A program made the translations under genes and the position numbers. From a virus: 64,000 nt of DNA. Each line of letters begins with the position of its first letter. Position 1 is the first letter of the stretch. The stretch is taken from positions 41,381 to 105,380 of IMG/VR virus record IMGVR_UViG_3300009514_000007; one strand, given 5' to 3'. A model generated the notes under the pieces. The model worked only from the letters and a program-made list of their open reading frames with translations. It was not told the origin of the DNA and did no database searches. Of the stretch, positions 11,756 through 48,029 are shown one piece after another.

Positions 11756-14700
11756 ATGACGACGACTCCCAAGATCATTGGCCCAGACGGCGTTAGTCGG
11801 GAAGATTCCGAATTCACGACCACACTCCCTACGAGGTTTTTCAACGGCACCATTGACGAGAACACCGTCGATATGCAGATCAGTATCCGGGGCGCACCTT
11901 TTGTGTCCAACCCGGATCTGGTCGTCTTTGAGGACACGAGTTTCACGGTCCCCAACCCGTCTGTATTCCCCGATGGCCTTGACCTCGCCGCAGGGCTCAA
12001 TGAGATCCTGATCCGTTCTGTGGGCACCTCGGGCTCCGTGTCGAATTCCGCACGAGTGGCCGTTCGACTCGTACAAGAGTCGGACCTTGGCAGCACGGGA
12101 GAGCCTCCGACCAACATCACCGTTGAACGCCGGGACAACGCGATTGTGATCACGGCCGAGGCATTGGACGACTCCAATGTCACTGGCTACAACATCTATG
12201 CCTCGCGGTTCACGGGCGGTGGCGCGACGGGTTACGTGCGGATCAACGTCAACCCGATCACAGACACCTTCACGAAAGCGGAGACGACCGAGCTTCGGAC
12301 CCTGGAGGTCGATGCGGACGTTGCCACAAACCCGGATGGTTCCCCGGCTGCCGACCCGTTGTTCGTTCAGCTACAGCAGACTCAGACCCGAGGCGGAGAC
12401 CTGATCGAGCGCCTGGAGGACGTGACGCTCACTGACGAGCTTGCGTCAGCCATCACAATCCAAGAGCAGGACAATCTGCTCCAGACCGATTTCACAGACG
12501 TAACAGAGGTACCGGAGACGACGACTAAGCTCCGCACGACGGTTCGCGTGGACTCGGTACGTGAGCGCCAATTCATCAGCTTTGAGCATGACCGCCGAGC
12601 GGGGCCGACGAGCAAGCCCGCAACGGTTCCGGTCGGTGAATTCGCTGCGACTCCGATCACCGATAGCTTGTTTTACGTCGTTACGGCAGTCGTGTTCGAC
12701 TCGGAGCTTCGGGTCGAGAACGAGTCTCCGTTCTCGATCGAGGTTGCGGCCAACCCGGTCACAGTTCAGTTGAACCTTGGTAACTTTCCCACGGTCACTC
12801 GCTCGGACATTACGCAGCAGACGATCACGGCGCTCTTGCGTACCAACCCGACCATCGCGGTCCAGCCCGGCGCCGTTGTCCGCGACATTTTTGTGGACCC
12901 CTTCGCCAGTGAGGCTGAGCGCGTCCGCTTCATCGTGGATTTCCTGCACCGCACGGAGTCGTTCGACACGTTGCTTCGCATCGACGGCATTGACGAGGAC
13001 GGCAACCCTGTTGCGGTCCAAAACTCGGCGTACAAGCAGGCTCTCCAACGTGCCTTTGGGCTCCAGCGTCCCGAGGCGGTCCAGGCGGTGATCGACCAAG
13101 CCTTTGAGCAGGGGGCAGCCAAGGTTGGGCAGTCGCGCCTGCCGGGTATCCGCGCTCGCGGTCAGGTCACGTTTTTCACGAACACCCGCCCCACTCAGAC
13201 CATCCCGATCCCGTTGGGGACGACGGTGGCTGCGGGTTCGGTGACGTTCGTGACGACGGCGGACTCCGCGATCCCATTTGAGAATGCGGCTTCGTTCTTT
13301 GACCCGACTACGGGGCTGTTTTCGGTGGACGTGTTGATCCGCGCCGAGGCGGTCGGTGAGGCAAGCAACGTCGCGCGGGGTCAGATCCGCACGGTGCTTT
13401 CAGGGACCTCGGGTCTCCAGGTGATCAACTCCAGTGACACGTTTGGAGGCTTGAACCTGGAGACGAATTTCAAGCTCGCTGTCCGTGCCAAGAACGCCCT
13501 TGCGTCCGTGGACTCGGGGACGGAGGCAGGCTACCGCCAAACCCTCGCCGCCATCCCTGGCGTGCAGGAGACAGTGATCGTCACTCCTGGCGACCAACTC
13601 ATGCAGCGGGATTTCGACGCTGATTTCGACAAGCACGTCAAGGGCAAGGTGGACATCTACATCCGTGGGCGGAACCTCGCCACGGTGACGGACACCTTCG
13701 CGTTCACGTTTGAGACGAGCAACGACGCCCAATTCAAAATCAAGGGCAACCCATCGAACCTCGTCTTTGAGGCGCTGGACGCAAGGCTCACGCCTGACAA
13801 CCCCCTTGCCGAGATGCTGGATTTTGCCGAGATCGGTCTTGGCTTCCGCAACGCGACCTCGGGTCAGAACTTCGACCTCACGAACGTCCAGATCCTCGAC
13901 TACAAGACCATTCAACTTGACGATTCGCTCGCACAACCGGGTGCGGCCCTTGGCGATGTGTTGCTCGGGGATTTCCGCTTCTTGGTCACCAACGAATTCA
14001 TCCTTCCGCGCCAGCCGGTCGCCGAGGTTATTGGGGTTACCGGGCAACTCACGGGAGCTTTGAGCGATGACCAATTTGCGCTGTACCGTCTCGACAACCC
14101 GCTGCTCGATGGGCGCTCGACGGAAGCGCAGTCGTTCGTGCGGATTAACCCGTCGAGCGGGGTGCCGACCGGCAACCTCGTCGCGGTCCAGAACGAGTCC
14201 CACATCGTCATCGGCGAGTTCTACGAAACGCTGAACAACCTCGGGGTCAACCCCCTCACGATCCGGGTGTTCAATTCGGGCAAGACGATCGAATACCGGG
14301 GACCGAATCACCCCTCGGGCATCTCCGATTTCACGATCATCCCTGGCGACTCCACGACGGCGACCTCCATTGTCCGTATCCCCTCGGGAGGCATTTCTTC
14401 GGGCCAGCGGCTTCTCGTGGACTACCAGCACAACGAGAATTTCACCGTCGAGTACACGATCAACTTGGCTGTCAGCACGGCGCAGGGTGTGATCAACGGC
14501 CGCAAAGGCAAGCACATCACGGGAGACATCCTCGTGAAAGAGGCCGTCCCGGTTCCCGTGGACCTGGCTGTCACGATCATTCGGCGCTCGGGCTTTGCGG
14601 TGAGCCAAGTGGACCGGGCGGTACGGACGAATCTCACTCAGTTTTTCAACAGCCTGCCGATGGGTACGCCTGTTCGCCAGTCGGACCTCGATGCGGTGAT

Positions 14701-15298
14701 CGAACGCACCGATGGGGTTTCGTTCGTGGACCTTCCGTTTACCAAGATGGTGCGTGCTCCCGACTCCTGCGTGATTCGTGAAGCCTTGCGTACCAGCCAG
14801 ACCGGAGACACCACACTCATTGAGGGGACGGATCTCCAGCCCATCTCAACGACGACCGTGCTGGTGTGGCTCATTGAGGACGAGTTGAACAGCGCGACTG
14901 CACAGGCGGGAGGCCCTGACAACGAATTCCGAGGCGTGACCAAGGACGACCGGGACATGGATCTCCAGCCGGTGCAGTTTGAGGCACTTGGGCTTGGCTC
15001 AGATCGCGCCTTCATTATCGGGGACGAGGGGCTGTCCATTCCGGGTTTCTCGGACAACGAGACGCTGCAAGCCGAGTTCCCCACGGCCAGCCTATCCGAG
15101 ATCGAAGCACAGCGACGGAAGCTCACGTCGAACCGTGTGGCCGTCTCCCTTGCTGTAGGAGACAGCCCAACCGCCCACACCTTCACCGTGACCTACGTGG
15201 TGAGCGCGGTGAATACCGGGACCAAGAACCTCGATGCCTTCGACATCGAATACTTTGAGGTTGGCGACCTCGATTTCACCCACTCCGAGGATAGCTAG
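11756..15298 (+). CDS. Baseplate J-like (T4 gp6/P2 gpJ family) wedge protein with extra domains (1180 aa)
   Basis: Baseplate-J signatures: GIRARGQVTFF...IPLGTTV, VLIRAEAVGEASNVARGQI...VINSSDTFGGLNLETNFKLAVR...SGTEAGY...AIPGVQETVIV. Gene order gp25-J-I. Confidence 0.85.
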   Translation: MTTTPKIIGPDGVSREDSEFTTTLPTRFFNGTIDENTVDMQISIRGAPFVSNPDLVVFEDTSFTVPNPSVFPDGLDLAAGLNEILIRSVGTSGSVSNSARVAVRLVQESDLGSTGEPPTNITVERRDNAIVITAEALDDSNVTGYNIYASRFTGGGATGYVRINVNPITDTFTKAETTELRTLEVDADVATNPDGSPAADPLFVQLQQTQTRGGDLIERLEDVTLTDELASAITIQEQDNLLQTDFTDVTEVPETTTKLRTTVRVDSVRERQFISFEHDRRAGPTSKPATVPVGEFAATPITDSLFYVVTAVVFDSELRVENESPFSIEVAANPVTVQLNLGNFPTVTRSDITQQTITALLRTNPTIAVQPGAVVRDIFVDPFASEAERVRFIVDFLHRTESFDTLLRIDGIDEDGNPVAVQNSAYKQALQRAFGLQRPEAVQAVIDQAFEQGAAKVGQSRLPGIRARGQVTFFTNTRPTQTIPIPLGTTVAAGSVTFVTTADSAIPFENAASFFDPTTGLFSVDVLIRAEAVGEASNVARGQIRTVLSGTSGLQVINSSDTFGGLNLETNFKLAVRAKNALASVDSGTEAGYRQTLAAIPGVQETVIVTPGDQLMQRDFDADFDKHVKGKVDIYIRGRNLATVTDTFAFTFETSNDAQFKIKGNPSNLVFEALDARLTPDNPLAEMLDFAEIGLGFRNATSGQNFDLTNVQILDYKTIQLDDSLAQPGAALGDVLLGDFRFLVTNEFILPRQPVAEVIGVTGQLTGALSDDQFALYRLDNPLLDGRSTEAQSFVRINPSSGVPTGNLVAVQNESHIVIGEFYETLNNLGVNPLTIRVFNSGKTIEYRGPNHPSGISDFTIIPGDSTTATSIVRIPSGGISSGQRLLVDYQHNENFTVEYTINLAVSTAQGVINGRKGKHITGDILVKEAVPVPVDLAVTIIRRSGFAVSQVDRAVRTNLTQFFNSLPMGTPVRQSDLDAVIERTDGVSFVDLPFTKMVRAPDSCVIREALRTSQTGDTTLIEGTDLQPISTTTVLVWLIEDELNSATAQAGGPDNEFRGVTKDDRDMDLQPVQFEALGLGSDRAFIIGDEGLSIPGFSDNETLQAEFPTASLSEIEAQRRKLTSNRVAVSLAVGDSPTAHTFTVTYVVSAVNTGTKNLDAFDIEYFEVGDLDFTHSEDS

Positions 15299-16744: not shown

Positions 16745-19700
16745 ATGGCCGCTAGCATTGAAAGCAAAGTCAACGCAGCCGCACCGCTGGTCGGCGTGAG
16801 CCGCGAAGATCTGCGGGCGGGCGACGTAATCACCCTGACGCATGTTGGAGCGCCAGCCACGACCTACGGGTGGTCGCTGCTGTTTACGCCTGACCAACCG
16901 GACGGTACCCCGTCCACCGCGACCCTTTCCTCGACGGTCGGGCCTGGTCCGATCACCTTCACGGTAGACAACGAGGGCGCGTATCTCGTCCAATTGATTG
17001 TCGATTTCGGCCTTGGGACCGAATCGAAGCAATCCGTTCGGCTGCGTTTTCAGACCGTATTTGCGGATCTGAAACTGGTCGCGGGCGGCGAGAAGCGAGA
17101 CACCACCGAGGCCATCCCGGTCGATGCGAGCCCCGAAGGTTGGGCCGACGACCAAAACCAGAATCTCCAGACGTTGCTGGCTCTCGTCCAGCACGTCTCG
17201 TCCAGCGGTCGAATTCTCTACATCGACGCGAACCGATCGAAAGACTCCAGCAACCCTCCGAACGACCCGACCATCGCGGAAGCGTTCGCGGACGGTTCCA
17301 CCTATGCCGAGGCAGCGGCCCTCGCCAACAACCCGGTCTGGAACGAAGGCGTGCCGCCCTCGTCCACGAGTCCGGTGATCGTTGCTGCCCGGCCCGGCCT
17401 CTACATCGAGAACCTGACCCTTGAGCCCTACGTCCACCTGATCGCGTGGCCCTCGACGGGGGGCTTCGATGGTGACACGGCGCTTGGCAAGGTAGACAAC
17501 TCGGTTCGATTCCGATGTGCCAACGGTGGCGGTGTTCCGGCCCTCACTCACACGGCTAGCGTTCCGCTCGTCGGTGATTTCGTGATGGCTGCGGGCGTGG
17601 TGTTTGAGAACATCGGCACGACGACCAATGCGGCGATCCGAAAGACCGGCGTTGGCGATTTCCACGCCGTCAATTGTCGGGTCGTTCAAAACGGCAATGG
17701 GGCGGGACAGGGCGCAGCGCTCTCCCCCGAGAACGGGCGCACTTTCCTGCGGGAAACCACGCTCGTCCAAAACGCAACCTTCTCGGACGACCTCGCAGCT
17801 TTGTCTTTGGCCCCTGCGGGTCCGAATACTGCATCCGTCGTCATGGACGGAGGCAAGATCCACGGTACGTCGGCTGCGCGCCTGGACATCAATCAGGTCG
17901 GTGGTGCGGGCACCTTCGCCACTTTCCGTGATGTCGAATTCCGCCAGGTCGGCATCGGCCCGAGCAGCTACGTCGTCCACACGTTTGCTCCGGTCACGTC
18001 TTTCGACCGCTGTAGCTTTAGCAATGAGAACGGCGGCGCCGATGCGATCGAGGGCAACCCTGGAGGCGTAGGTACGCCGGGTGCCATGACCATCGAGGTT
18101 CGTCGCAGCACTCTCGGGGCACCGGGCGCCTACTTGGGCATCCTGTTTGACGACACCGGCCTCGGTGGGGCAGCGCTTTTGCGCACAGGTTCGTCGGAAT
18201 TCTTGGAGCCCATCACGGAGCCCGGCGGGACGATTCCCCGTGAGGCCCTGACTCTTGGCACGACTCTGTTCTACGACAACACGGCATCTGGTATCACGGC
18301 CGAGAACGTCCAAGACGCCATCGACCAGACGTTCGATGCTGCGGACTCGATTGCCAACCTGGACGACGCCTATGACGGCTTCGATTTCTCGACTACCCCT
18401 CCGACTCGCCTCGTTGGCGGCGGTCGGGTCATTCTCGCAGACGCCGATGCGGTCGAGGTTCACGGTTCTGGTGTCTCGACGGACCCCCCGGCCATTGACG
18501 ACCTGAGTGGTGACGGTACCGTTCGGATCAATCAGGCGTTGGAGATCGGCGCGATCAATGCCCCCGAGGTTCTGATCGATTCCAACTTGTTCGGCAACGG
18601 GCCGTTTATGTCGATGGGCCAACTTGTTTGGTCCGACAGCCCACTCGGAGCCTCCGCGTATTTCGTCGCCAAGGCGACCGGGGACACGGGCGGAACCGAC
18701 GAATACCGAAACTACAATCTCCGCATCCAGACGCAGAGCGGCTACGGGCACACGATGGCCGGGCCGATGCTCTCGGAAATGGGCGCCCTGATCCTCCAGG
18801 GTGGGTCGGCCTACGCAATCGGTGGGGTCAACTCCCCGGCTGGCGGTTCGGTCTACGTCATGGCGGGCAACGTCGATACGGCGGCTGCCGCCCCGGATGG
18901 CGACCCCGGCAACGTGTGGGTAGTCCCCGGTGTCTCGCAGGTCGGTGGTACTCCGACTGTTGGCTCGATGAAGCTGGTCGATCCCGACTCAGCGACCTCG
19001 GCAACGCTCGTTCCCGTCAGCAACTTTGTGGACTCCGGTGCTCCAGCGGGCACGATCACGTTCGCAACCGACACGGGCAAGGTCACTGTTACCTTCACAG
19101 GCGGAGAGGTCTTTGCCGGACCTGGCGGCATTCAGGAGAAGCTGCAACTGGCTTCGGGCATGGTGGCGACCTGGCCGGGAGGCGCAACGCCGATCACCCT
19201 GACCACGACTGCCATTGGCCCGACCGCTGAGCTTCTGTACGTGGCAGACACGGGAGGCGTAAACGCTTTCCTCGGTGATTTCTCGATCACGGGTGGTGCT
19301 GTATTCACGCCGGGGACGTTCCCCGTCGTCGTGGATATGTGGGCCAATGGCTCGGGCGAGCTTGAGGTGGGGCCTGTTGGCGGTGGGTCCAACATGATCT
19401 ACAACCCGACCACCGGGAAGCTTACCGTCCCCGGCCTGATTGACCCGACCGGCATGGCCTTCACCAACGAGGCCGAGGCTACGATTGCCGCCGCCGTTGG
19501 GACGCTCGGCACTGCGTTCGTGTCAGACGGCACTGGCCTTGCCCCGAACGCTGACCACCTGTATTTCCGACGTGGCAGTGATGGCGTGCTGTTCGACCTG
19601 CTTGCTGCGGGTGGAGGCGGCGCACCGCTTGGGTCGCGCTATGTCCTTTCGCCCGGCGCGGCAGATGGCTCGCTGACGGCTGAGCGAATCATCGCGGACA

Positions 19701-20560
19701 CTGCCGACATCGCATGGACCGATGGTGGTGCGGGTGGCTCGTTGACTGCCGACCTGGCGGTTCAAGGAGCGGTCACGCCAGGCACTTACCTGCTCGCCGA
19801 TGTCACGGTGAACAGCAAGGGAGTCATCACTGGCATCGCGGCGGGTACGTCGGGTGGGGCCTCGTCGGCAGCCTCCTACGTGATCGTCGGTGGGGGTACG
19901 GGCGATGGTACGCTCACCGAGGAACGCACCCTTGCAGGAGATGCGGGCACTGCAAACGTCTCCGTCACCGATCTCGGTGTCGGCAACCCGGTTCGCATTG
20001 ACCTGATCAACACCGCAGTTACGCCGGGTGTTTACGGCGGAGCCGGAGCGGCTACGACCTTCACGGTGGATGCGAACGGGCGTCTCACCGCAGCAGCAAC
20101 GGAATCGGGGCCTTTCCCTGCGGTCCATACGATCTCGGAGCAAATGACTGTCCCGGTCGGGGTTGCGCCTCCGAACACGATCAACGAATTCCATGCTCTC
20201 GCGTTCCCGGCTGGCTTTACGCCCGTTCCTGTTCCGGGTGGAGGTGGCCCGGCTGCGGCCTACGTCTACATCGACGTGGCGTTGGGTATGGCTCCTGGTA
20301 CCGCTCTCTTGGAGATCTTCGCAGGGCCTCCGACTCCAGGTGTCCCTGCGGCCGGTACCTTGCCAGGACCACACCCCTCGTTCGTTTCGCTTGCGCCCCC
20401 CGTTGACATCGGGATTTTGGCTCCGGCGACGCATCTTGCAATCCCCATCGCTCTTGCCCCCATTCCGCCGGGTAGTTTCCTAGTGTTCAACACGGTCTAC
20501 ACGGCACCGGTGCCAACGGGTGATGGGCTGATCGTGTCCGTTTCCGGTATTGGCGCCTGA
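16745..20560 (+). CDS. Tail fibre/tailspike protein with putative beta-helix domain and fibre repeats (1271 aa)
   Basis: N-terminal PKD-like segment. TYAEAAALA...VIVAARPGLYIENLTLEPYVHL resembles the start of a parallel beta-helix. Also FYDNTASGITAENVQDAID trimer motif and two VTPGxY...VTVxxxGxIT repeats. Confidence 0.7.
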   Translation: MAASIESKVNAAAPLVGVSREDLRAGDVITLTHVGAPATTYGWSLLFTPDQPDGTPSTATLSSTVGPGPITFTVDNEGAYLVQLIVDFGLGTESKQSVRLRFQTVFADLKLVAGGEKRDTTEAIPVDASPEGWADDQNQNLQTLLALVQHVSSSGRILYIDANRSKDSSNPPNDPTIAEAFADGSTYAEAAALANNPVWNEGVPPSSTSPVIVAARPGLYIENLTLEPYVHLIAWPSTGGFDGDTALGKVDNSVRFRCANGGGVPALTHTASVPLVGDFVMAAGVVFENIGTTTNAAIRKTGVGDFHAVNCRVVQNGNGAGQGAALSPENGRTFLRETTLVQNATFSDDLAALSLAPAGPNTASVVMDGGKIHGTSAARLDINQVGGAGTFATFRDVEFRQVGIGPSSYVVHTFAPVTSFDRCSFSNENGGADAIEGNPGGVGTPGAMTIEVRRSTLGAPGAYLGILFDDTGLGGAALLRTGSSEFLEPITEPGGTIPREALTLGTTLFYDNTASGITAENVQDAIDQTFDAADSIANLDDAYDGFDFSTTPPTRLVGGGRVILADADAVEVHGSGVSTDPPAIDDLSGDGTVRINQALEIGAINAPEVLIDSNLFGNGPFMSMGQLVWSDSPLGASAYFVAKATGDTGGTDEYRNYNLRIQTQSGYGHTMAGPMLSEMGALILQGGSAYAIGGVNSPAGGSVYVMAGNVDTAAAAPDGDPGNVWVVPGVSQVGGTPTVGSMKLVDPDSATSATLVPVSNFVDSGAPAGTITFATDTGKVTVTFTGGEVFAGPGGIQEKLQLASGMVATWPGGATPITLTTTAIGPTAELLYVADTGGVNAFLGDFSITGGAVFTPGTFPVVVDMWANGSGELEVGPVGGGSNMIYNPTTGKLTVPGLIDPTGMAFTNEAEATIAAAVGTLGTAFVSDGTGLAPNADHLYFRRGSDGVLFDLLAAGGGGAPLGSRYVLSPGAADGSLTAERIIADTADIAWTDGGAGGSLTADLAVQGAVTPGTYLLADVTVNSKGVITGIAAGTSGGASSAASYVIVGGGTGDGTLTEERTLAGDAGTANVSVTDLGVGNPVRIDLINTAVTPGVYGGAGAATTFTVDANGRLTAAATESGPFPAVHTISEQMTVPVGVAPPNTINEFHALAFPAGFTPVPVPGGGGPAAAYVYIDVALGMAPGTALLEIFAGPPTPGVPAAGTLPGPHPSFVSLAPPVDIGILAPATHLAIPIALAPIPPGSFLVFNTVYTAPVPTGDGLIVSVSGIGA

Positions 20561-38758: not shown

Positions 38759-41700
38759 ATGGCTGATCTTGGCAACGGCGTATCGCGCACCCTCTCCGCT
38801 CTCATGCGGCAGTTCCAGCTTGTCGTCTACCAACGCGGCAAGCCCCCGCTGGACTCGGAGCACAACCTGCTCCAACAGATCCAGAACGAGACGGCCGCCA
38901 ATTGGGTGCGGAGTCAGATGCCCTCGGGCTTTTTCCTTGACCCGACTCGACCCCTGGACGATTTCGTAACCGACTCGCTGAACGCCAATCAGTTTCGTTT
39001 CGGCCAACAGAAGCGGAACGACGCGGGAAATGTCGAGGAATTGGCCCCGATCATGTGGGCCAACGTCAACGGCTGGCTCGTCCCGGTTGTTGGCACGAAC
39101 AACCCCGAGTCCAACGCCACTGACAACATCGTGACCCTCAATCCCCCGCCTGACTCGGACACGCGCGTCGATTTCGTGTTCCTTGAGGTCTGGCGGGTCA
39201 ATGTCGCTGCCAACGACTCGACCAAGAACAAGCCAAGCGCGGACAAGATCTGGAAATACGGCAACGTCGAATTCGGCCAAGCGAACATTGACGACGACCT
39301 GACCGATCCGGCCATCGGCTACGAAACGACCGAGCGCGTCCAACTCCAGTACCGGATCCGCGTCGTCGGAGAGGGCTCAGGGGCCGGCGTCAGCCCGGCG
39401 CTCGACGTGTACCCCGATGGTCTGGACGACCCCAACGTGCGCGCTCAGGGGCCGCTGTCGGCTCCCTCGGCCCAAGCCTACGCCGTGTGGACGAACATGC
39501 GGGCAGACCTTGGGGATGCGAGCCTGTGGCGTGCAGGTGACGGCGATCCGGCCAACGATTTCGGGACCGTGGATGGCTATGTGTACGCCATCCCCATGTG
39601 CGGCATCTTCCGCCGCAACAACCAGCCCTACGTGGCGGTGAACACAGCAGGCAACCCGAACCAGAACGGTGCCTTCAATCGCACCCCAAGTTCGGCGCTT
39701 CTGACCAATCCCCGTGACGGAGCCCGGTTGCTCAACCAAGCGGCGTTGGTTAGCGATATGCCCGCCGAGCAATTCACCGTGCTCACCGAGGTTGAGGTAG
39801 ACGGCCTGATCGGTTCGGGCTTTGACGACGCCGGGATCAGCTTCACCAACACATTCCTGGTGATCGATGACGAGGTAATTGCCATCGACTCGATCGACAC
39901 CACCGTATCCCCGGCGCGCATCCGCATTCCAGCGAACGGCCGTGGTCAATGGGGTTCCGATCCGCTCGGACACGCTGGACGTTCGGACCCCGCCGTCGCT
40001 GGCAGCGGCACGGCGATCACGTTTTTCAATACCCGGCCGGACGGCAAGTTTGCCGACGAGGTAGCCCTGGACGACGTATTCGATATGCGTCGCGGGGTCA
40101 ATTTCGGCGATTGGGACTACGAGCGCCTGCTCATGCACAACGCCGCCGCTCTGATGCGCAACCGTTTGCGCTCGACGTGGAAGCAGACGGGTGTGCCTTC
40201 GGGTGACACGGAAGGTGTTACGGTCCACGAGGTTGACTACCTGCTCCAAGACGGGGCGACCGCTGTACCCAACGGCACCGAGGCGATGGATGGCCCTGAT
40301 GGTATCCGTACCGTCTTTTCCGACGCCGCTACCCTGCAAGCCGATGTGACCTCGTTGCTCGACAACGAGGGCACGATGAATTCGGGCTTCATCCAGACCT
40401 TCGATGATCTCGTGTTCTGGGACGCCGGGGCGGATTTCAAGCCCGGCGGCTTTATGAATAACCGGAACAACACCGATCCGGGATTCAAAAACGGCACGAC
40501 GATCTTCATGTACATCGGTGGTGACGACGGCAACGAGGGGGCACGCAAGACCTTCCGTAACGGAGCAACCCGAGCGGTTCGCTACGTCATGCCGCGCGAG
40601 CATTTTGTGAGCCGCCAAGACGACCCCGACACGGGCCGTCAGCATCCGGTCACATTGTCGTGGACGAGCAGTGACCAGCAGAACGCTGTCGCCACGGGGC
40701 CGGGTTCCGGGCTTCAAGCGCTCACCCCGGCTGGTCCCGGTGAGGCAGCCAGTGAGCACCCCGGCGCGATGTACCCTCTGAGCTTCCTCAACTTTGAGAA
40801 GCCCTTTATCGTGCTCGGCGGCGTTATCGAGTCGTCGCTGAACCTCTCGGGTTTGGTCGCGGCCACGCTGCACGACAACACCACGGACCCCGGCACCATC
40901 CCGCTTGGCGAAGGTGAGATCGAGCTTCCCGGCTTCGATTTCGATGCGGTGAACGACTGGTATACGCTCGACACCAATGGTGAGTACGAGCTTACGCCAA
41001 CCGCCAACCTGAGCTTCCCGGTCCTTCGCGGGCAACGGACGCTCTACGATATGCTCACCGCTGGAGGGCGCGACCGCACGGGGTCCTCGTCCGAGGTCTA
41101 CCTGATCCTCTACGGGGACATCGACGCCGAAGAAAACAACGGCGCCTTCCAAGTGATCGGCGCCGGTACGGGCGGCATGACTCAGAAGATCGCGGGCGGG
41201 TCGAACCGTCTCCGAGTCCGTTTCCTGAGTCAGAACGTGACGACCTTCGACGTGACCTCTACCTCCGTCACGATTTCTCTCCAAGTGCGTTCGCAACACT
41301 CCAACGCCGAGGATGGCGGCGGTCAAGCTACGGGTCCGTCCGCCATGACCATCACCCTCACGGATATTCAAGCCGAGGAAGGTGGCGGCGCGAACCCGTG
41401 GAACGAGGCGAACATCAATCCGGGCACGGTCGATGGTAAGACCTTGGAGCAGCCGTTCGACTACAAGTGCCTGGCGAACATGACGCTCCAGTACCACCCT
41501 GGCCGTGGTGCGATGGCCCGCGTTCCCGATCACATCGAGCGGGTGGCGATCCAGCAACCCAACGTCCAGATGCTTCGGCAGTCACGGGCGAATCTCGACA
41601 CGGATTTCCCGGCGCTGACGGGCGCTCCTGGCTCGCCCCCGGAAGCGGAGTTCACGCCCACGCACATTCAAACGTGGAACCGTTTGCCGAGCCTCGGCCA

Positions 41701-44377
41701 GCACGAGCCCGATGCCCCTAACTACGGTGGGAACGTGGTGCTGTTCTCCGAGATCGACCGCGAGAACGAGGCTTTCATCGACAGAGGGTCCAAGACCCTT
41801 CTCCTGCGTCCGTACCAGGATCTCAGCATGACCATGCGAGGGTTCACGACGGAAGCCTCGCCCTCTCTGCTCGGTCCTACGGGCTACCCTGCTGTGCCAC
41901 TGATCCCGAACGGGTGGAACGGACCCAAGGACGACGCTCAGATCTTCACGACGACCTGGCTGATGGGCTACACGGTGCCGCATGAGTGGATGCCTCGTTT
42001 TGGCCGTCAGGACATTCCCTACTACCAGGACAACGGACCCAACTACGGCACTGGCCGGTTCTTGGAGGGGATCAATCACCTGTTCACGGACGGCACGGAC
42101 CTGACCAACCCGGTTTTCAGCGTCATTGGCGGTGAGGACAACACCACGGGCGGGCAGCTTGTGACCCGTTTCTTGGCGCAGACGGGCACGACCTCCGGGT
42201 TCAAGTACGGGCAGTATGGAACTGTCACGGGTCCGACGACTCCGGCATATCAGGGCCGACTCCTGAGTGCCATCGGTACGGGCACCCCCGAAGCCGAGGC
42301 CATCACGAATCGGGTCAACTCCATCGTATCCTCGGATTTTGGTGTGGGCCTCAACGGCATCCAGCTTCCGCCCTACCTCGGCATCGCCCGCTTGTTCGGC
42401 GTGTATGACCGTCGAGACTACGTGGCGAAGGGTGGAGTGTCGTTTGACACGGATCGCGTGACGCCGCTGGCGAACAACGCGGTCAACCTGCTCAGGCGAG
42501 ACGCAGACAAGCAGACCCTTTTCATCCTCCAAGACGGAGCAAAGGATCTGACCGGCGAGGACGACGACCACACCTACGTCATTCCCGAGAACGCGATCGA
42601 CATCACCCGGTCCCCCAATTTCGTGGGCGGGGAGACGTTCTCTGACCTGGAGTACGTGGTCGAGTTCACCTGTTTCGGATTCGCACGCGGGTTCGTAAAC
42701 AAGAACAACTTTGTTCTGGCTCGCCGTCACGATGGTCAAGGGAACAGCATTACCGATGGGGATAACCCCGAGCTTGAGAACATCCGCATGACCATCCCGC
42801 ACGCGGCTCCTGACTCGTCACGAGCCTACGTCGCGTACAACCGCACGGTCTACCAGGGCGACCCCTACATGAGCCGTGCGGGCTCCGTGAGGACCAATAG
42901 CGACTACGAGCACCGCTACGGTCAGGTCGCTGTCTCCGACGCTTTCGCTGTGGGTGACGACATCCAGCAATTCGACGCGGACGGGGTGCAGATCCCTGAG
43001 CGTCCGAACGCGCGTGCGTTTGAGGTCATGGCCTCGCTCGATTTCTACACGACGATGGGAACTGGCAACATCGGCGGGCGCTTGTACGCGGGCACCGTGA
43101 CCGACGTGGGCTACACCGAGGACAACGAGATCAGCGCGACCAGGATCCCGCCCGAGGTAGATACTCCGGCGAACCGGGTCCTTGCGCGTGCCTTCACCGA
43201 GGGTCAAAAGGAGAACCAGAGTCGAGCCTCCATCAATCTGCGGATTGAGGGCACGGCCATGACATTCTTCCCTGCGGCAGACGCTACAAAGGTCACGATC
43301 AAGAAGCTCAACGGTGACCTTGTTTCGTTCACAGCCAACAACGGCGCCACGGTGGACGCGGATAAGTTCGATGCGTCCTCGCCTGACGAGGTAGTGATTG
43401 CCAAGGAGCTTACGGACAAAATCAACGCCCGTACTGCTCTGGACGACACGCTGGTCGCGTTCAACGACATTGACGATCAGGTGCTTCGGCTCGTTTCGCG
43501 GGTCGTCGGGGACGAGGGCAACGGCATCCGTGTCTCGATCAATGACATCACGAATCTAAAACTCCAGAAGCCGGTCACGGGCGAGGAAACTCTCGATGCC
43601 GTGTTCACCGACTGTTTCTTGGAGGGCGGGATCGATCTGGCAGTCAACGGCGGGAACGGCACGACCCAGATCGACCTGACCGGCATGACCGAGCGGTTCC
43701 CACTTGGCATCTTGTTTCAAGACTCCGATTTCATCGGGGAGAACCCGCTTGGAGACAGCGCTTCGGCGGTGCAGACGGTGCTTGGAGGTATCCGCCCGGT
43801 GCAGAATCTCTTGCCGCTCACTCGTAGCGGGGGTGAGGAATTCACCCGATTTGCGGGCGCCCCCGGCGAGTTGATCGGCATGGGGGATGGCGCGATTCTC
43901 CAGTACAGCGCGTTTGACGAGAACACGAACCCCGGAGGCAGTCGCCGGTTCCGTCTGTTCCGTGGCGGCGGCTCGGTGTTCGTACTCGGCGGCCGTAACC
44001 CCGGAGGCCCGATCGACTACGTGTCCGGTTCCCTGGAGCCGCCCCTCAACCCGGTCCTCAAGGGCGGCTTGCTCGCGTGCAAGGTGCTTTTGGTCCGTAA
44101 CCTGACCGAGCGTGCTTTTTCCACGGACGATGTGACGACCGAGGGAGACGAGCTACAGATGGTGGTGATCACCACGGGCATCCTTGGCAACGGTAGAACC
44201 CGCCGCGAAGGGGTCACACTTGACGGAATCATTGGCCCGACTGGATTCGGGGAAGGCGACGCGGCCTCTGACCGCTACCGCCTCAATGGCAAGCCCATGT
44301 GGAAGGGTCGGGTCCGCGTGACCAATGACCCGGCCACCATCGCCCTCGCCCCATTCCCAGGACGAGACACGGAGTAG
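38759..44377 (+). CDS. DUF4815-like virion protein, paralogue 2 (1872 aa)
   Basis: VVYQRGKPPLDSEHN N-terminus; collinear similarity with 26753-30208. Confidence 0.75.
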   Translation: MADLGNGVSRTLSALMRQFQLVVYQRGKPPLDSEHNLLQQIQNETAANWVRSQMPSGFFLDPTRPLDDFVTDSLNANQFRFGQQKRNDAGNVEELAPIMWANVNGWLVPVVGTNNPESNATDNIVTLNPPPDSDTRVDFVFLEVWRVNVAANDSTKNKPSADKIWKYGNVEFGQANIDDDLTDPAIGYETTERVQLQYRIRVVGEGSGAGVSPALDVYPDGLDDPNVRAQGPLSAPSAQAYAVWTNMRADLGDASLWRAGDGDPANDFGTVDGYVYAIPMCGIFRRNNQPYVAVNTAGNPNQNGAFNRTPSSALLTNPRDGARLLNQAALVSDMPAEQFTVLTEVEVDGLIGSGFDDAGISFTNTFLVIDDEVIAIDSIDTTVSPARIRIPANGRGQWGSDPLGHAGRSDPAVAGSGTAITFFNTRPDGKFADEVALDDVFDMRRGVNFGDWDYERLLMHNAAALMRNRLRSTWKQTGVPSGDTEGVTVHEVDYLLQDGATAVPNGTEAMDGPDGIRTVFSDAATLQADVTSLLDNEGTMNSGFIQTFDDLVFWDAGADFKPGGFMNNRNNTDPGFKNGTTIFMYIGGDDGNEGARKTFRNGATRAVRYVMPREHFVSRQDDPDTGRQHPVTLSWTSSDQQNAVATGPGSGLQALTPAGPGEAASEHPGAMYPLSFLNFEKPFIVLGGVIESSLNLSGLVAATLHDNTTDPGTIPLGEGEIELPGFDFDAVNDWYTLDTNGEYELTPTANLSFPVLRGQRTLYDMLTAGGRDRTGSSSEVYLILYGDIDAEENNGAFQVIGAGTGGMTQKIAGGSNRLRVRFLSQNVTTFDVTSTSVTISLQVRSQHSNAEDGGGQATGPSAMTITLTDIQAEEGGGANPWNEANINPGTVDGKTLEQPFDYKCLANMTLQYHPGRGAMARVPDHIERVAIQQPNVQMLRQSRANLDTDFPALTGAPGSPPEAEFTPTHIQTWNRLPSLGQHEPDAPNYGGNVVLFSEIDRENEAFIDRGSKTLLLRPYQDLSMTMRGFTTEASPSLLGPTGYPAVPLIPNGWNGPKDDAQIFTTTWLMGYTVPHEWMPRFGRQDIPYYQDNGPNYGTGRFLEGINHLFTDGTDLTNPVFSVIGGEDNTTGGQLVTRFLAQTGTTSGFKYGQYGTVTGPTTPAYQGRLLSAIGTGTPEAEAITNRVNSIVSSDFGVGLNGIQLPPYLGIARLFGVYDRRDYVAKGGVSFDTDRVTPLANNAVNLLRRDADKQTLFILQDGAKDLTGEDDDHTYVIPENAIDITRSPNFVGGETFSDLEYVVEFTCFGFARGFVNKNNFVLARRHDGQGNSITDGDNPELENIRMTIPHAAPDSSRAYVAYNRTVYQGDPYMSRAGSVRTNSDYEHRYGQVAVSDAFAVGDDIQQFDADGVQIPERPNARAFEVMASLDFYTTMGTGNIGGRLYAGTVTDVGYTEDNEISATRIPPEVDTPANRVLARAFTEGQKENQSRASINLRIEGTAMTFFPAADATKVTIKKLNGDLVSFTANNGATVDADKFDASSPDEVVIAKELTDKINARTALDDTLVAFNDIDDQVLRLVSRVVGDEGNGIRVSINDITNLKLQKPVTGEETLDAVFTDCFLEGGIDLAVNGGNGTTQIDLTGMTERFPLGILFQDSDFIGENPLGDSASAVQTVLGGIRPVQNLLPLTRSGGEEFTRFAGAPGELIGMGDGAILQYSAFDENTNPGGSRRFRLFRGGGSVFVLGGRNPGGPIDYVSGSLEPPLNPVLKGGLLACKVLLVRNLTERAFSTDDVTTEGDELQMVVITTGILGNGRTRREGVTLDGIIGPTGFGEGDAASDRYRLNGKPMWKGRVRVTNDPATIALAPFPGRDTE

Positions 44378-44380
44378 ACC

Positions 44381-44782
44381 ATGGCTAACCCTTCCGCAAC
44401 CCGAGTCGCGTCTCGCCACATCGAGGCGTACCGGAATCGACACGACAAGATCATTGACGACTGGTTTGACGACCAGCTTGACCCTCGCACGAAACGGCTC
44501 ATTCAACAGGCCAACCATGACCTCTATGAAGGTCCGCACTCGTCACCGGGATACCCTGGCTTTGAGCGGGCGACTCGCATGATCGGGCAGGCCCTTGATC
44601 GGTTCCGCACCGATCTGTGGCTCGACCAGCAAAGCGATATGGTTCAAGACTCGGAGCCGGAAGGGTGGGAGGACGAGGAAACGGGGGAGTGGATCGAGCC
44701 AGACTGGCATGACTGGATCCACTACGACTGGTCGGATGTGAAACGCATCGGGCTCGGAGCTTTGGCTGAGTACGTGAACTGA
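44381..44782 (+). CDS. Small acidic, Trp-rich protein; candidate internal head protein (133 aa)
   Basis: GGAG RBS; N-terminal RVASRH motif; acidic C-terminus EPEGWEDEETGEWIEPDW. Confidence 0.75.
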   Translation: MANPSATRVASRHIEAYRNRHDKIIDDWFDDQLDPRTKRLIQQANHDLYEGPHSSPGYPGFERATRMIGQALDRFRTDLWLDQQSDMVQDSEPEGWEDEETGEWIEPDWHDWIHYDWSDVKRIGLGALAEYVN

Positions 44783-45150
44783 TGTCCCCGCTCGATCTCA
44801 AGAGGCTTGCCATTCGGATCGAGCGGTTGCAGCGAATGAGCCGGCACGGCTGGTCGCCCGCTGATGACCTGGAGTTCAAGAACAAGCTCCCTGGTGGTCG
44901 AGACTCGCGCCGTGCGTTGCCCGACCCCAAAGACCTGCGGGAGTGGGCCAAGACGATCGGCAAGGATCTCCAGCTACAGCGGAACATCCGGCCCAAGTGG
45001 CGGCAGTGGATCACGACGACGCTGAACCTGGAGAGCGCGGCGTCGAGCAACGACCCACGCAACCCGAAGCGAATCATGCGTGACCTGTCTCGCGGGCGGT
45101 TCCCGCGACGGGCTGCCGTGGCGCGACGGTATTTGGCGCGTCAAAAATGA
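44782..45150 (+). CDS. Small basic protein; candidate internal head protein (122 aa)
   Basis: TGATG coupling; Arg/Lys-rich; C-terminal AVARRYLA motif. Confidence 0.7.
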   Translation: MSPLDLKRLAIRIERLQRMSRHGWSPADDLEFKNKLPGGRDSRRALPDPKDLREWAKTIGKDLQLQRNIRPKWRQWITTTLNLESAASSNDPRNPKRIMRDLSRGRFPRRAAVARRYLARQK

Positions 45151-45827
45151 CGCCCGACCCTTCCAAGGTCGCGGCTCGTTGGGCATCGCAGGACGAGCCG
45201 ATCCCCGACGAGTATGCCGGGGACCTGGAGTTGGTTGAGCAGTGGCAGGGCGGCACTCAATTCCATGTGCGCTGGCTGTCTGACGAGGTGAAAGACCTTT
45301 TGCGATCCGGGGATGTCCCCATGGACCTGATTGTGGCGCTCCGTCGTCACTACGGGTTCACTGAGGACGCTCGGGAGAGCGCCGGACACAAGGCGTTGAC
45401 GGCGAGACACCTGCGACTGCTCTACGCGCTCCGTGACAAGCATCCGTACTTTTTCAAGCCTCCGAGACAACGGGCCTACTACCGGGGGGTGGGCCTGCGC
45501 CGCGCGTCGGTCGAGAAGCTGATCGGCCCCATCGAACCTGCGCGGGGCAAGACCTCTAAGGTTCCCGTGGACCTGACGTTCCCTCTCCGGTGGAACAAGC
45601 ACTGGACCACGAATCTGCGGCTGGCTCGCTCGTGGGCCTCGGGGTTGGGAGGGCGAATCCCTCTCGTGCTGCACACGAATGCAACTGATCTGTTCGTACT
45701 CAACGTCCGGGGGATGCACGACCTGATCGGTTTCGATCGGGGCCGGTGGTCTGAGCAAGAGGTTGTGCCGGTGAAAAGCATCCCCGTGTCGCTGATCGAA
45801 TTACAGGGTTGGAAGCTGGCCGGGTAG
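45147..45827 (+). CDS. ADP-ribosyltransferase (R-S-E clade) with N-terminal KVAARW motif (226 aa)
   Basis: YYRG (45477-45488), HWTTxxxxAxxWA (from 45600) and EQE (45753-45761) in canonical ART order; ATGA overlap. Confidence 0.7.
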   Translation: MTPDPSKVAARWASQDEPIPDEYAGDLELVEQWQGGTQFHVRWLSDEVKDLLRSGDVPMDLIVALRRHYGFTEDARESAGHKALTARHLRLLYALRDKHPYFFKPPRQRAYYRGVGLRRASVEKLIGPIEPARGKTSKVPVDLTFPLRWNKHWTTNLRLARSWASGLGGRIPLVLHTNATDLFVLNVRGMHDLIGFDRGRWSEQEVVPVKSIPVSLIELQGWKLAG

Positions 45828-45836
45828 CATAGGGCG

Positions 45837-46229
45837 ATGCACCACCTGTCTCAACAACACATTGATATGAAGGTGCGCCGTCCTCACCTGGCGCGGTTCA
45901 AGAAGCAGTTGATCGAATCTCTCCGCGACCCCGGATTGTCCGCTGAGCAGGTTCAGATGATCCGCTCGCGCCTGGAGCGCCTGGGAAAACCCAAGGAATA
46001 TCGGGAGGGTACGACCCCTCCAGGGGGCCTCAATCCTGGTCCTATACCGAAGCGCCCTAGTAAAGAGATCGCTGTCGAGATCGGAACCTTCACCAACGAC
46101 TACCTATTTGGATTACCTCACTCCACGCTTGCTCGTTACTGCAAGCAAGAGGGCTTGGAGGTCAGGATGACCGACCCCAAGGCGACGCTCGTAGCAGCCA
46201 TTCTCAACTCAAAGGGAAACAACCAATGA
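45837..46229 (+). CDS. Hypothetical protein with C-terminal Rho-N/HeH-like helix-extension-helix (130 aa)
   Basis: LFGLPHSTLARYCKQEGLEVRMTDPKATLVAAIL matches the L..L...L...G......K..L...I pattern. Confidence 0.55.
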   Translation: MHHLSQQHIDMKVRRPHLARFKKQLIESLRDPGLSAEQVQMIRSRLERLGKPKEYREGTTPPGGLNPGPIPKRPSKEIAVEIGTFTNDYLFGLPHSTLARYCKQEGLEVRMTDPKATLVAAILNSKGNNQ

Positions 46230-46813
46230 TCAACCGACTCACGGTCCTTTTCGCTTTTCTCGTGGCGTTCGTTTTCACCGCTCCGCTGGCCCTCGCAGGT
46301 CCGCCGGAGGGTGACACGGCCGTTGAAACCAAGGCCGACGTAAAGGCCGATGCACCCGACGCCAAGGCAGACGAAAAAGCCGACGCGACAGAGGATGCCA
46401 AGGCAGACGAAAAAGCCGAGGCCAAGACAGATGACACCGATGGAACTGGAGGGACCGATGGGACCGATGGGACCGATGGCACGGATGGCACGGACGAGGC
46501 CGACGAAAAGCTCGGCGAGCATGTGGATGCTGCGATTGAGGCGGCTCGCTCCGGCGAGTGGGCTCTGATGGTGTCCGCTCTGATCATGCTGCTGCTCGGT
46601 GTCGGCCGGAAATTCAAGGTGCTCGACAAGGTGCCCTCCAAGACGTTGCCTTGGGTGGCCGTCATCTTGGGTGTCGCCGTCGCCGTCGCTGACGCCCTCG
46701 CCACAGGCGGAGAGCTTTCGCTGGAGCGGGTGCTGCAAGGTGTCATGGCTGGCGCGGCAGCATCCGGTCTGTGGGGGATGATCGGCAAGCACGTTCTTGG
46801 CAGCAAAAAGTAG
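46226..46813 (+). CDS. Holin-like membrane protein with N-terminal signal peptide and acidic linker (195 aa)
   Basis: Signal peptide ending ALA|GPPE and a D/E/T/A-rich linker. Three hydrophobic segments follow, ending in GVMAGAAASGLW, which resembles the GLAASGLY holin motif. Last gene of the late block. Confidence 0.6.
   Translation: MINRLTVLFAFLVAFVFTAPLALAGPPEGDTAVETKADVKADAPDAKADEKADATEDAKADEKAEAKTDDTDGTGGTDGTDGTDGTDGTDEADEKLGEHVDAAIEAARSGEWALMVSALIMLLLGVGRKFKVLDKVPSKTLPWVAVILGVAVAVADALATGGELSLERVLQGVMAGAAASGLWGMIGKHVLGSKK
46361..46419 (+). repeat. 23-bp direct repeat x2 (GCCAAGGCAGACGAAAAAGCCGA)
   Basis: Copies at 46361-46383 and 46397-46419, encoding AKADEKA. Confidence 0.9.
46451..46495 (+). 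repeat. 9-bp tandem repeat x5 encoding (GTD)5
   Basis: GGGACCGAT x3, GGCACGGAT, GGCACGGAC. Confidence 0.9.
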
Positions 46814-47795: not shown

Positions 47796-48029
47796 ATGCA
47801 GTCCAAGTGGAAAAAACTGAGGGAAGGGCATTGGGTGTCTTGGAACGGATACGAGATCCAAAAAGACGCCAAGGCCAAATCCAAGTGGCATCTCTACGAC
47901 CCTGACGGCGCGGCTGTCCACGTCGAAGGCCAGTGTACGTGGGGTAGTCTACGTGGAGCGCAACGAGCCCACGCAACGGTACAGTCCACAGGTGAAGCGC
48001 TCGCGGCGAGACACATCCACACCGCGTAA
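47796..48029 (+). CDS. Hypothetical protein (77 aa)
   Basis: GAGAG RBS and ATG; Trp/Lys-rich; overlaps the likely GroEL start region. Confidence 0.55.
   Translation: MQSKWKKLREGHWVSWNGYEIQKDAKAKSKWHLYDPDGAAVHVEGQCTWGSLRGAQRAHATVQSTGEALAARHIHTA

Follow-up and report, generated by a model that had tools for sequence, protein, structure and literature searches.

The window, a stretch of 64,000 nucleotides from the 116-kb IMG/VR virus record IMGVR_UViG_3300009514_000007 (positions 41,381 to 105,380), contains three consecutive small genes whose products each begin or end with a variant of the same short peptide, here called the tag. The genes lie after the gene for a 1872-aa virion protein and before a holin-like gene. 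Their features, together with a fourth string that was rejected, are as follows.

44381..44782, plus strand: gene for a 133-aa acidic, Trp-rich protein with an N-terminal tag (ORF and translation)
44390..44428, plus strand: tag copy 1, PSATRVASRHIEA, residues 4-16, N-terminal, 29.0 bits
44782..45150, plus strand: gene for a 122-aa basic protein with a C-terminal tag (ORF, coding score +13.0)
45103..45141, plus strand: tag copy 2, PRRAAVARRYLAR, residues 108-120, C-terminal, 15.3 bits
45147..45827, plus strand: gene for a 226-aa protein with an N-terminal tag, probable ADP-ribosyltransferase (ORF, coding score +38.0)
45153..45191, plus strand: tag copy 3, PDPSKVAARWASQ, residues 3-15, N-terminal, 18.4 bits
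47997..48014, plus strand: ALAARH, rejected as a member of the tag family, -3.3 bits

All three ORFs have positive codon-usage scores in frame and strongly negative ones out of frame (for the 133-aa ORF, +25.1 versus -35.7 and -102). A GGAG lies 8 nt upstream of the ATG of the 133-aa gene, and the three genes are translationally coupled: the start of the 122-aa gene overlaps the preceding stop (TGATG) and an ATGA overlap links the 226-aa gene to the gene upstream. The sequence-only reading had noticed RVASRH, AVARRY and KVAARW at the ends of three neighboring proteins, and these strings indeed occupy residues 8-13, 112-117 and 7-12, respectively, of genuine, unrelated and coupled gene products that share no pairwise similarity beyond the tag. 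Copy 1 is the closest fit to the clade-wide consensus, and the core of copy 2 lies 5 residues from the C-terminus of its protein. The 133-aa gene is missing from two 85%-identical relatives (L002 and L003), in which the counterpart of the 122-aa gene has been disrupted by a deletion or frameshift; its final piece still ends in ...IKRVAARFTSRGG*. No match to the 133-aa protein was found in Pfam, PHROG or ESM Atlas searches, and Pfam and PHROGs returned nothing usable for any of the seven tagged proteins of the genome, even with E values up to 10. The fourth string, ALAARH, had been proposed as a looser instance of the motif and does not belong to it. It scores -3.3 bits and ends a 77-aa ORF (47796-48029) that has a coding score of -2.9, overlaps the probable GTG start of a chaperonin gene and has no equivalent in L002 or L003.

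The motif is not explained by an Ala/Arg-rich composition. In the whole record, the pattern of the sequence-only reading has 6 in-frame matches versus 0.36 expected from 1000 composition-preserving shuffles, none of which reaches 6, and 5 or 6 of the 6 lie within 25 residues of a protein end (0.055 expected). Two of the six copies are C-terminal. Outside the window, in sequence held out from the first reading, the genome has 3 matches versus 0.145 expected, and all three are terminal. When the proteome is scored with a matrix whose training set was solely 36 N-termini from other metagenomes, the six copies take the first six places, at 29.0 to 12.3 bits, with the next best at 9.8; shuffles give 0.17 matches at 12 bits or more against this matrix, and their maximum of 17.9 bits compares with 29.0 for copy 1. 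When terminal k-mers of this genome alone are enumerated without bias, RVA.R ranks fourth and is not significant after multiple testing. Other top-ranking k-mers (T.E.IR and VE..EP) occur in inconsistent contexts and look like chance. The proof of the motif lies in the held-out and cross-genome tests, not in the k-mer ranking within a single genome.

Two other origins can be weighed against these data. The motif could have arisen by chance in a high-GC proteome rich in Ala and Arg, a view for which the single-genome k-mer result speaks, as do the spurious fourth instance and the eight pattern matches that the other five reading frames yield. The held-out, shuffle and cross-genome tests reject this, however, and the tag is equally present in relatives of 48-52% GC; we consider chance highly improbable. 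Alternatively, a nucleic-acid element at gene boundaries, such as a recombination linker or a signal for translation or transcription, could encode the peptide incidentally. Boundary sequences have been proposed as sites of module exchange in mosaic phages, and no copy in this genome is more than about 70 nt away from a gene boundary. Yet all four Val codons, all four Ala codons and five or six Arg codons are used across the copies. Synonymous codons therefore vary freely, indicating selection on the peptide, and the codon data largely refute a DNA-level signal. In addition, the end placement is confined to the six coding-frame matches and is not seen for the eight in other frames, and many copies lie deep within long ORFs. 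An origin at the DNA level is accordingly hardly credible.

The full tag is about 11 residues long and reads [A/P]-S-[A/P]-x-R-V-A-x-R-[Y/F/H/W]-[A/L]. Positions -1, 0, +1, +3, +4 and +5 are conserved, +2 and +6 are free, and a Ser N-cap stands at -4. This conservation has helical periodicity and predicts an N-capped amphipathic helix. In the AlphaFold model of a 445-aa relative, helices are predicted at both tags with low confidence (tag pLDDT about 35-55); the internal tag forms helix 191-201, which follows a disordered stretch (110-187) and precedes a confidently modeled ART domain. Residues 5-13 are likewise helical, at low confidence, in a model of the 226-aa protein. Between the tag and the ART domain there are linkers of 5-10 residues. 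At least two further tag families, YSYDRR... and ...LRS[RK][VL]IRLAH..., coexist with it in the same genomes, an observation that complicates a single-receptor model. A strict assignment of one tag class to each genome was rejected, as classes A, B and C occur side by side in single genomes and loci.

The idea of a portable tag, carried by unrelated proteins at either terminus, is well borne out among the relatives of this phage. The tag was found N-terminally, C-terminally and at the joints between modules in at least 12 related phage contigs, among them relatives whose core proteins are about 40% identical, and it is conserved while the bodies of the proteins are not. In G004 and G005, homologues exist for the flanking core genes and not for the tagged proteins of this genome, and 57 of the 81 modules that flank tags are BLAST singletons. 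At a threshold of at least 12 bits, G006 has 29 tags on 22 proteins (9 N-terminal, 2 C-terminal and 18 internal) and G007, a complete genome of 398 kb, has 10, of which 8 are N-terminal; G004 and G005 are likewise tag-bearing. C-terminal copies recur in G003/G005, G004, G006, L093, L094, L105 and L110. About 36-40 of 120 stand-alone ART-PolyVal homologues, on contigs of up to 530 kb, begin with the tag. It also recurs in most of 24 further IMG/VR loci that were scanned, 15 of which have class A tags. A terminal enrichment of ...LARKPF in G004 reflects paralogy of the methyltransferase modules and is not a tag. No published description of the tag was found in the literature.

The tagged proteins of the relatives are of the effector type. 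Their domains include ART-PolyVal (twice), HAD with topoisomerase IB, NUDIX, a nucleotidyltransferase of the poly(A)-polymerase type and a C39 peptidase; Iyer et al. 2017 (PMC5512222) predict that such domains are packaged in virions. Tagged proteins of G006 carry at least two effector-type domains per polypeptide, the criterion for polyvalent proteins, while the three window proteins are small, with at most one domain each, and fall outside that definition. Judged from its ESM Atlas neighbors, the 226-aa protein resembles an ADP-ribosyltransferase and is probably one. Its nearest ESM Atlas clusters by features include DRAT (0.93), and by structure ART, ADPrib_exo_Tox, Lart1 and the T4 ModB type (TM 0.54/0.58); an 844-aa portal-fused relative is also among its neighbors. 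Its ART-family neighbors, by features and by structure, have TM values of 0.36-0.62, and as candidate elements of an ART fold with an R-S-E type catalytic triad its translation contains YYRG, HWTT and EQE. A Pfam search gave no hit, no relatives were found in IMG/VR, and among 5.8 billion proteins the search returned only the protein itself. Its AlphaFold model, made without an alignment, has a pLDDT of 36 and is unfit for a fold search.

Tagged genes lie in virion modules. On the strand with identified structural genes, 21 of 200 genes are tagged versus 1 of 78 on the opposite strand (p = 0.011). In G006 the portal and major head genes flank the genes of tagged enzymes; in L100 tagged genes directly follow the portal gene, in L110 they are about 3.4 kb downstream of it, and in L111 they are no more than 5 kb from the major head gene. 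At other loci they adjoin neck, sheath or baseplate genes. The tagged genes of this genome adjoin neck, tail and baseplate genes, not head genes, in a fragment that does not include the head module; this placement counts against a capsid-loading reading. Taken together, these data show a real tag that is under selection as a peptide. It is portable, not bound to one terminus and conserved in the clade, and it sits on effector-type domains encoded in virion modules.

What the tag does can be approached from its bearers. Dozens of enzyme-like proteins with no relation to one another carry this peptide in related phages, so that it probably serves as an address for loading accessory proteins into the particle. 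Targeting of injected cargo to the capsid is plausible because the effector-type domains are typical of polyvalent proteins predicted to be packaged in the head, because the tagged genes lie in virion modules (in three relatives between or beside portal and major head genes), and because the tagged 226-aa protein resembles an ADP-ribosyltransferase, as T4 Alt is. Our best reading, to which as a whole we give a probability of about 0.5, is that the tag is a position-independent docking peptide for virion cargo loading. A clade of huge phages, with genomes of roughly 0.3-0.5 Mb, would use flexible or short linkers to attach the tag helix to accessory proteins that change fast, either at the N- or C-terminus or, in multi-enzyme proteins, between modules. 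We infer that a conserved phage-encoded partner would read it independent of position, and that this partner most likely belongs to the assembling virion (the prohead interior). Tagged proteins made late would then be incorporated into the particle and delivered together with the DNA; in the window, the cargo would be the ADP-ribosyltransferase-like protein, the acidic 133-aa protein and the basic 122-aa protein.

The same peptide might instead be mainly a cleavage signal, with a phage protease cutting multi-module polyproteins and trimming small proteins, and with targeting secondary or absent. Such a role would suit the 18 of 29 G006 tags that are internal and at module boundaries. One 1519-aa protein has five tags, an ART domain at 745-901 is bracketed by tags at 581 and 918, and in the 445-aa protein a tag stands 20 residues ahead of the ART domain; the same modules are separate tagged genes in other genomes, and the residues ahead of the core are small (S/A/P). 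Both ends of T4 Alt are trimmed (PMC9026906), and for polyvalent proteins proteolytic processing is predicted (PMC5512222). Nevertheless, the periodicity of conservation is helical and not that of an extended cleavage site, and cleavage at tags 5-13 residues from a C-terminus would free only a tiny peptide, yet these tags are kept across genomes. The portal and major head proteins lack the motif, which therefore is not a general maturation site. The more specific proposal that a prohead protease removes the tag, as in T4, found no support: in the 20 residues after tags, neither the T4-type L/I-x-E (0.14 versus 0.18 in random 20-mers) nor the S/A/G-x-E of phiKZ-like phages (0.20 versus 0.24) is enriched. 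A search for Peptidase_S77 in five genomes, one of them complete, gave no match, in a test in which control genomes were equally silent and diverged proteases are easily missed. With no known prohead-protease motif after the tag and no S77 protease detected, the T4 mechanism is not simply transferable. We regard processing as the main role of the tag as unlikely.

Because tagged genes neighbor the phage actin gene in several loci, a hub other than the capsid is also possible, though rather doubtful. The tag would then dock its bearers to filaments of a volactin-type phage actin, by analogy with the actin-binding helix of ParR or with WH2 motifs, or to a host machine (RNA polymerase, ribosome, chaperone, or a protease adaptor reading it as a degron). 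Within the clade, conservation is highest for actin (65-69% identity versus 30-58% for other core proteins), as expected of a hub with many clients, and a short basic amphipathic helix usable at any position would suit a generic docking motif. Tagged genes flank the actin gene in this genome (the tagged one is a 95-aa gene, L038:10734-11021), in G006 (123.8-130 kb and 287-292 kb) and in L088, L092 and L097. The actin gene is itself inside the neck/tail module, however, so that proximity to it is indistinguishable from placement in a virion module, and many tagged genes are far from actin, beside a portal or major head gene. Moreover, the dedicated partner protein of the actin (ending in ...KRKRKKDQTND) has no tag, and it is not obvious why effector enzymes such as ARTs would need a filament. 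For a degron read by the host, the invariance of the tag would be unexpected across phages of 48 to 64% GC with presumably different hosts. The phage chaperonin was rejected as the tag reader, there being no GroEL homologue in the incomplete records G004, G005 and G006.

The preferred reading, a docking peptide for virion cargo, has parallels in several known systems. Encapsulin cargo-loading peptides are short amphipathic helices that target cargo to the shell, and encapsulin shells share the HK97 fold with phage capsids. The encapsulation peptides of bacterial microcompartments function at either terminus (PMC4594438), and like them the tag is predicted to be a short amphipathic helix, joined by linkers at either end of unrelated enzymes; unlike these peptides, which share only a hydrophobic pattern, its basic-aromatic core R-V-A-x-R-Y is nearly invariant, and its context is the virion. 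Foreign proteins can be loaded by the T4 capsid-targeting sequence (CTS), and T4 Alt has a propeptide at each end (PMC9026906). As in T4, a short peptide of about 10 residues sits on unrelated, fast-evolving late accessory proteins, one bearer is ADP-ribosyltransferase-like, and both protein ends are used. In contrast to the strictly N-terminal propeptide CTS, the tag is also C-terminal and at internal joints; it has no sequence similarity to the CTS, no L/I-x-E follows it, and no gp21-type protease was detected in the five genomes searched. The tagged proteins of the relatives are polyvalent proteins as described by Iyer, Burroughs, Anand, de Souza and Aravind in 2017 (PMC5512222), including Pfam PF18760 ART-PolyVal, and as in that description the tagged modules (ART-PolyVal, topoisomerase IB, HAD, NUDIX, nucleotidyltransferase and peptidase) are encoded in virion modules, with delivery alongside the DNA predicted. 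The text of PMC5512222 does not contain the word 'linker', and no junction or terminal peptide is described in its passages on processing and packaging; here, by contrast, the same peptide marks the limits of modules and also stands at the start or end of single-domain proteins, as it does in the window.

A more far-reaching version of the cargo-loading reading, which we offer only tentatively, is a programmable code. One conserved prohead pocket would read the 11-residue helix PSxSRVAxRYA wherever it occurs, at least two other interchangeable tags, YSYDRR... and ...LRS[RK][VL]IRLAH..., would address other cargo or sites, any enzyme gene that gains the tag would become an injected effector, and polyvalent proteins would be strings of tagged cassettes.

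Should the tag prove to be a loading signal, the proteins that an uncultured clade of 0.3-0.5 Mb phages injects could be read straight from sequence. In the window these would be an ADP-ribosyltransferase-like protein and the 133-aa and 122-aa proteins, and in the relatives they would include topoisomerase IB, NUDIX, nucleotidyltransferases and peptidases. The construction of polyvalent proteins would also be explained, as cassettes each with its own tag, and an 11-residue handle that serves at either terminus could be used to bring proteins of choice into phage particles.

The IMG/VR virus record in which the window occupies bases 41381-105380 comprises 115,952 bp with a G+C content of ~61%, has nearly all of its genes on the plus strand and is estimated by CheckV to be 22% complete. 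It is a member of a clade of uncultured huge phages. Its 1872-aa protein, whose gene immediately precedes the tagged genes, has relatives on contigs of 68-452 kb, and one relative, G007, is complete at 398 kb with terminal repeats. Three consecutive genes in the window carry a short peptide (the tag) near one end:

44381-44782, plus strand: 133-aa ORF, RVASRH at residues 8-13 (44402-44419)
44782-45150, plus strand: 122-aa ORF, AVARRY at residues 112-117 (45115-45132)
45147-45827, plus strand: 226-aa ORF, KVAARW at residues 7-12 (45165-45182)

All three peptides lie where the sequence-only reading had placed them. The ORFs are linked by TGATG and ATGA overlaps, and in each the codon-usage score is clearly positive for the reading frame but strongly negative for the others. 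The proteins are indeed mutually unrelated, the tag being the sole similarity among them. ALAARH, proposed as a looser fourth instance, has to be dropped: the tag matrix gives it -3.3 bits, and the coding score of the 77-aa ORF that holds it is negative. That ORF, which does not occur in the closest relatives, also overlaps the probable GTG start of the chaperonin gene. This GroEL-like gene probably starts at the GTG near 47995 and not at 47953 (window 47953-48029); from there its N-terminus aligns with the orthologue (MKRLRRG...) in L002, an 85%-identical relative.

The motif is commoner than an Ala/Arg-rich composition predicts. The pattern proposed in the sequence-only reading, [RKA]-[VL]-A-x-R-[HWY], has six in-frame matches in the whole record, all at protein ends, against 0.36 expected from 1000 shuffles preserving each protein's composition, none of which reaches six. 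Three of the matches (0.145 expected) fall in the 52 kb outside the window and therefore constitute a held-out test:

L038 (same record, outside the window) 3222-3443: 73-aa protein, N-terminal tag
L038 3443-4195: 250-aa protein, N-terminal tag
L038 10734-11021: 95-aa protein, C-terminal tag

When a position matrix is trained solely on ART-PolyVal homologues from other metagenomes (36 N-termini), the same six copies come out as the top six sites of the proteome (29.0, 18.4, 15.9, 15.3, 14.5 and 12.3 bits); the next-best site scores 9.8 bits, and 0.17 sites of at least 12 bits are expected in a shuffled proteome. Every synonymous codon is used for the invariant Val, Ala and Arg, in the record and in relatives, so selection acts on the peptide and not on DNA or RNA. 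An unbiased k-mer search restricted to this single genome did not return the tag as significant; that it exceeds chance is established by the held-out and cross-genome tests.

The consensus drawn from 65 copies in six genomes is [A/P]-S-[A/P]-x-R-V-A-x-R-[Y/F/H/W]-[A/L]. Its conserved positions are -1, 0, +1, +3, +4 and +5, whereas +2 and +6 vary freely, and Ser stands at -4. This pattern is that of a putative N-capped amphipathic helix with one face exposed. N-terminal copies begin 1-5 residues past the initiator Met, and 4-13 mostly basic residues come after C-terminal copies. An AlphaFold model of a 445-aa relative, built on an alignment of 85 sequences and with a mean pLDDT of 73.5, shows the internal tag as a helix (191-201) where a disordered stretch (110-187) ends, directly ahead of a confident ADP-ribosyltransferase (ART) domain (210-445); the N-terminal tag is modelled as a short, low-confidence helix.

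Among the tagged proteins of the window, the 226-aa one is probably itself an ART. Its nearest Atlas neighbours, by language-model features and by predicted structure alike, are ART families; the neighbours include DRAT, ART, ADPrib_exo_Tox and T4 ModB-type clusters and a portal-fused relative. YYRG, HWTT and EQE occur in its translation. A search of 5.8 billion proteins gave no sequence homologue, and its single-sequence model is too poor for checking the assignment. The tagged proteins of the 297-kb relative G006 bear ART-PolyVal (PF18760, twice), HAD with topoisomerase IB, NUDIX, a poly(A)-polymerase-type nucleotidyltransferase and a C39-like peptidase, with tags at the domain boundaries. 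This set is the repertoire of the polyvalent proteins, which are predicted to be packaged and delivered with DNA (Iyer et al. 2017, PMC5512222); the word 'linker' does not occur in the text of that paper, and its passages on processing and packaging mention no junction peptide.

Among 120 mostly stand-alone ART-PolyVal homologues, on contigs of up to 530 kb, the N-terminus carries the RVAxRY tag in ~36-40, a second peptide, x-Y-S-Y-D-R-R..., in ~35 and a third, ...LRSRVIRLAH..., in ~10, and all three lead into the same conserved domain start. Several unrelated proteins of G007 and G006 likewise carry the second and third. The second, M-x(0-3)-[Y]-x-Y-D-R-R..., stands at the start of at least five unrelated G007 proteins; it takes the place of the RVAxRY tag at the same position. 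The third is a leader of ~30 residues, ...LRS[RK][VL]IRLAH-x-x-P-x-L..., on several unrelated proteins, one of them encoded right after the portal gene.

G007 (loci L057-L076) 263916-265367, 301699-302463, 310226-310471, 310480-310758, 385224-385697: second tag; also proteins P0008, P0025, P0117 and others
G006 (L042, L051) at 4734, 196643, 197240, 198260: third leader
L091 9444-11719: third leader, three adjacent genes
L093, L096, L103, L106: third leader

Homologues of this genome's tagged proteins were not found by BLAST in the more distant relatives G004 or G005, where the flanking core virion genes have them. The 133-aa and 226-aa genes are absent from L002 and its equally close counterpart L003, and the 122-aa gene is broken there by deletion or frameshift (L002:15617-15906 and L003:15617-15808), its last piece still reading ...RVAARF...; we therefore regard the region between the 1872-aa and 130-aa genes as a fast-turnover accessory slot. 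Relatives carry tagged accessory proteins of their own, some at the same genomic positions. G003 and G005 encode, right after the 1872-aa homologue, a 177-aa protein ending in ...SVSRVA[LF]RYASKSM, and G004 a 151-aa protein with one copy per end. At a threshold of at least 12 bits, G006 has 29 tags, spread over 22 proteins (9 N-terminal, 2 C-terminal, 18 internal; five on one 1519-aa protein) and G007 has 10, eight of them N-terminal; 57 of 81 tag-flanking modules are BLAST singletons. The suggested portability to either terminus thus holds in this genome and its relatives, and internal copies extend it.

Tagged genes keep company with virion genes. The order in G006 is large terminase, portal, third-tag gene, several unknowns, a tagged 905-aa nucleotidyltransferase, a tagged 1255-aa HAD-topoisomerase protein, more unknowns, major head protein and two more tagged proteins; 21 of 200 genes on the strand with the identified structural genes are tagged versus 1 of 78 on the other (Fisher p = 0.011). 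Tagged multi-module ART proteins lie immediately (L100) or ~3.4 kb (L110) downstream of the portal gene, and tagged genes within 5 kb of the major head gene (L111); at other loci, the window included, they adjoin neck, actin, sheath or baseplate genes. The end of the window's virion block is marked by a 195-aa protein (46226-46813) that combines a signal-like N-terminus with a (TDG)n/acidic repeat and, at its C-terminus, a holin-like domain (PHROG 1299, E = 2e-10). Separately, G-x-G-V-S-R or G-V-S-R-[ED] occurs in the first 7-29 residues of four giant structural proteins (window 38759-44377, 16745-20560, 11756-15298 and one whose gene ends at 6687; relatives L004-L018). Distant relatives retain the motif in their homologues of the 1872-aa protein (GNGVSRTLSA, GPGVSRVL), and it may be an N-terminal assembly element common to paralogous baseplate or fibre proteins.

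The data are consistent with a position-independent docking helix, which a conserved phage partner would read wherever it is placed in a protein, and the destination is most likely the assembling virion. Docking to another hub is an unlikely alternative, one candidate being the clade's volactin-type actin, which is very conserved and whose gene is often near tagged genes. (G006 has two copies of that gene, 131822-132835 on the plus and 293972-294976 on the minus strand, 67% and 62% identical to this genome's and each with the same upstream neighbours.) That the tag is mainly a processing site at polyprotein joints we consider improbable.

Such docking has known analogues. The T4 capsid-targeting sequence (CTS) loads foreign proteins, and Alt, an ART bearing it, is trimmed at its two termini (PMC9026906). 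The details of the T4 mechanism cannot be carried over: protease motifs are not enriched after tags, the portal and major head proteins bear no tag, and a search of five genomes for an S77 protease found none, its control being equally silent. Microcompartment encapsulation peptides act at either terminus through a linker (PMC4594438). Our literature search found no paper describing the present peptide. As a class, the tags are candidate virion- or shell-targeting peptides, a known kind, with loading and a reader protein predicted.
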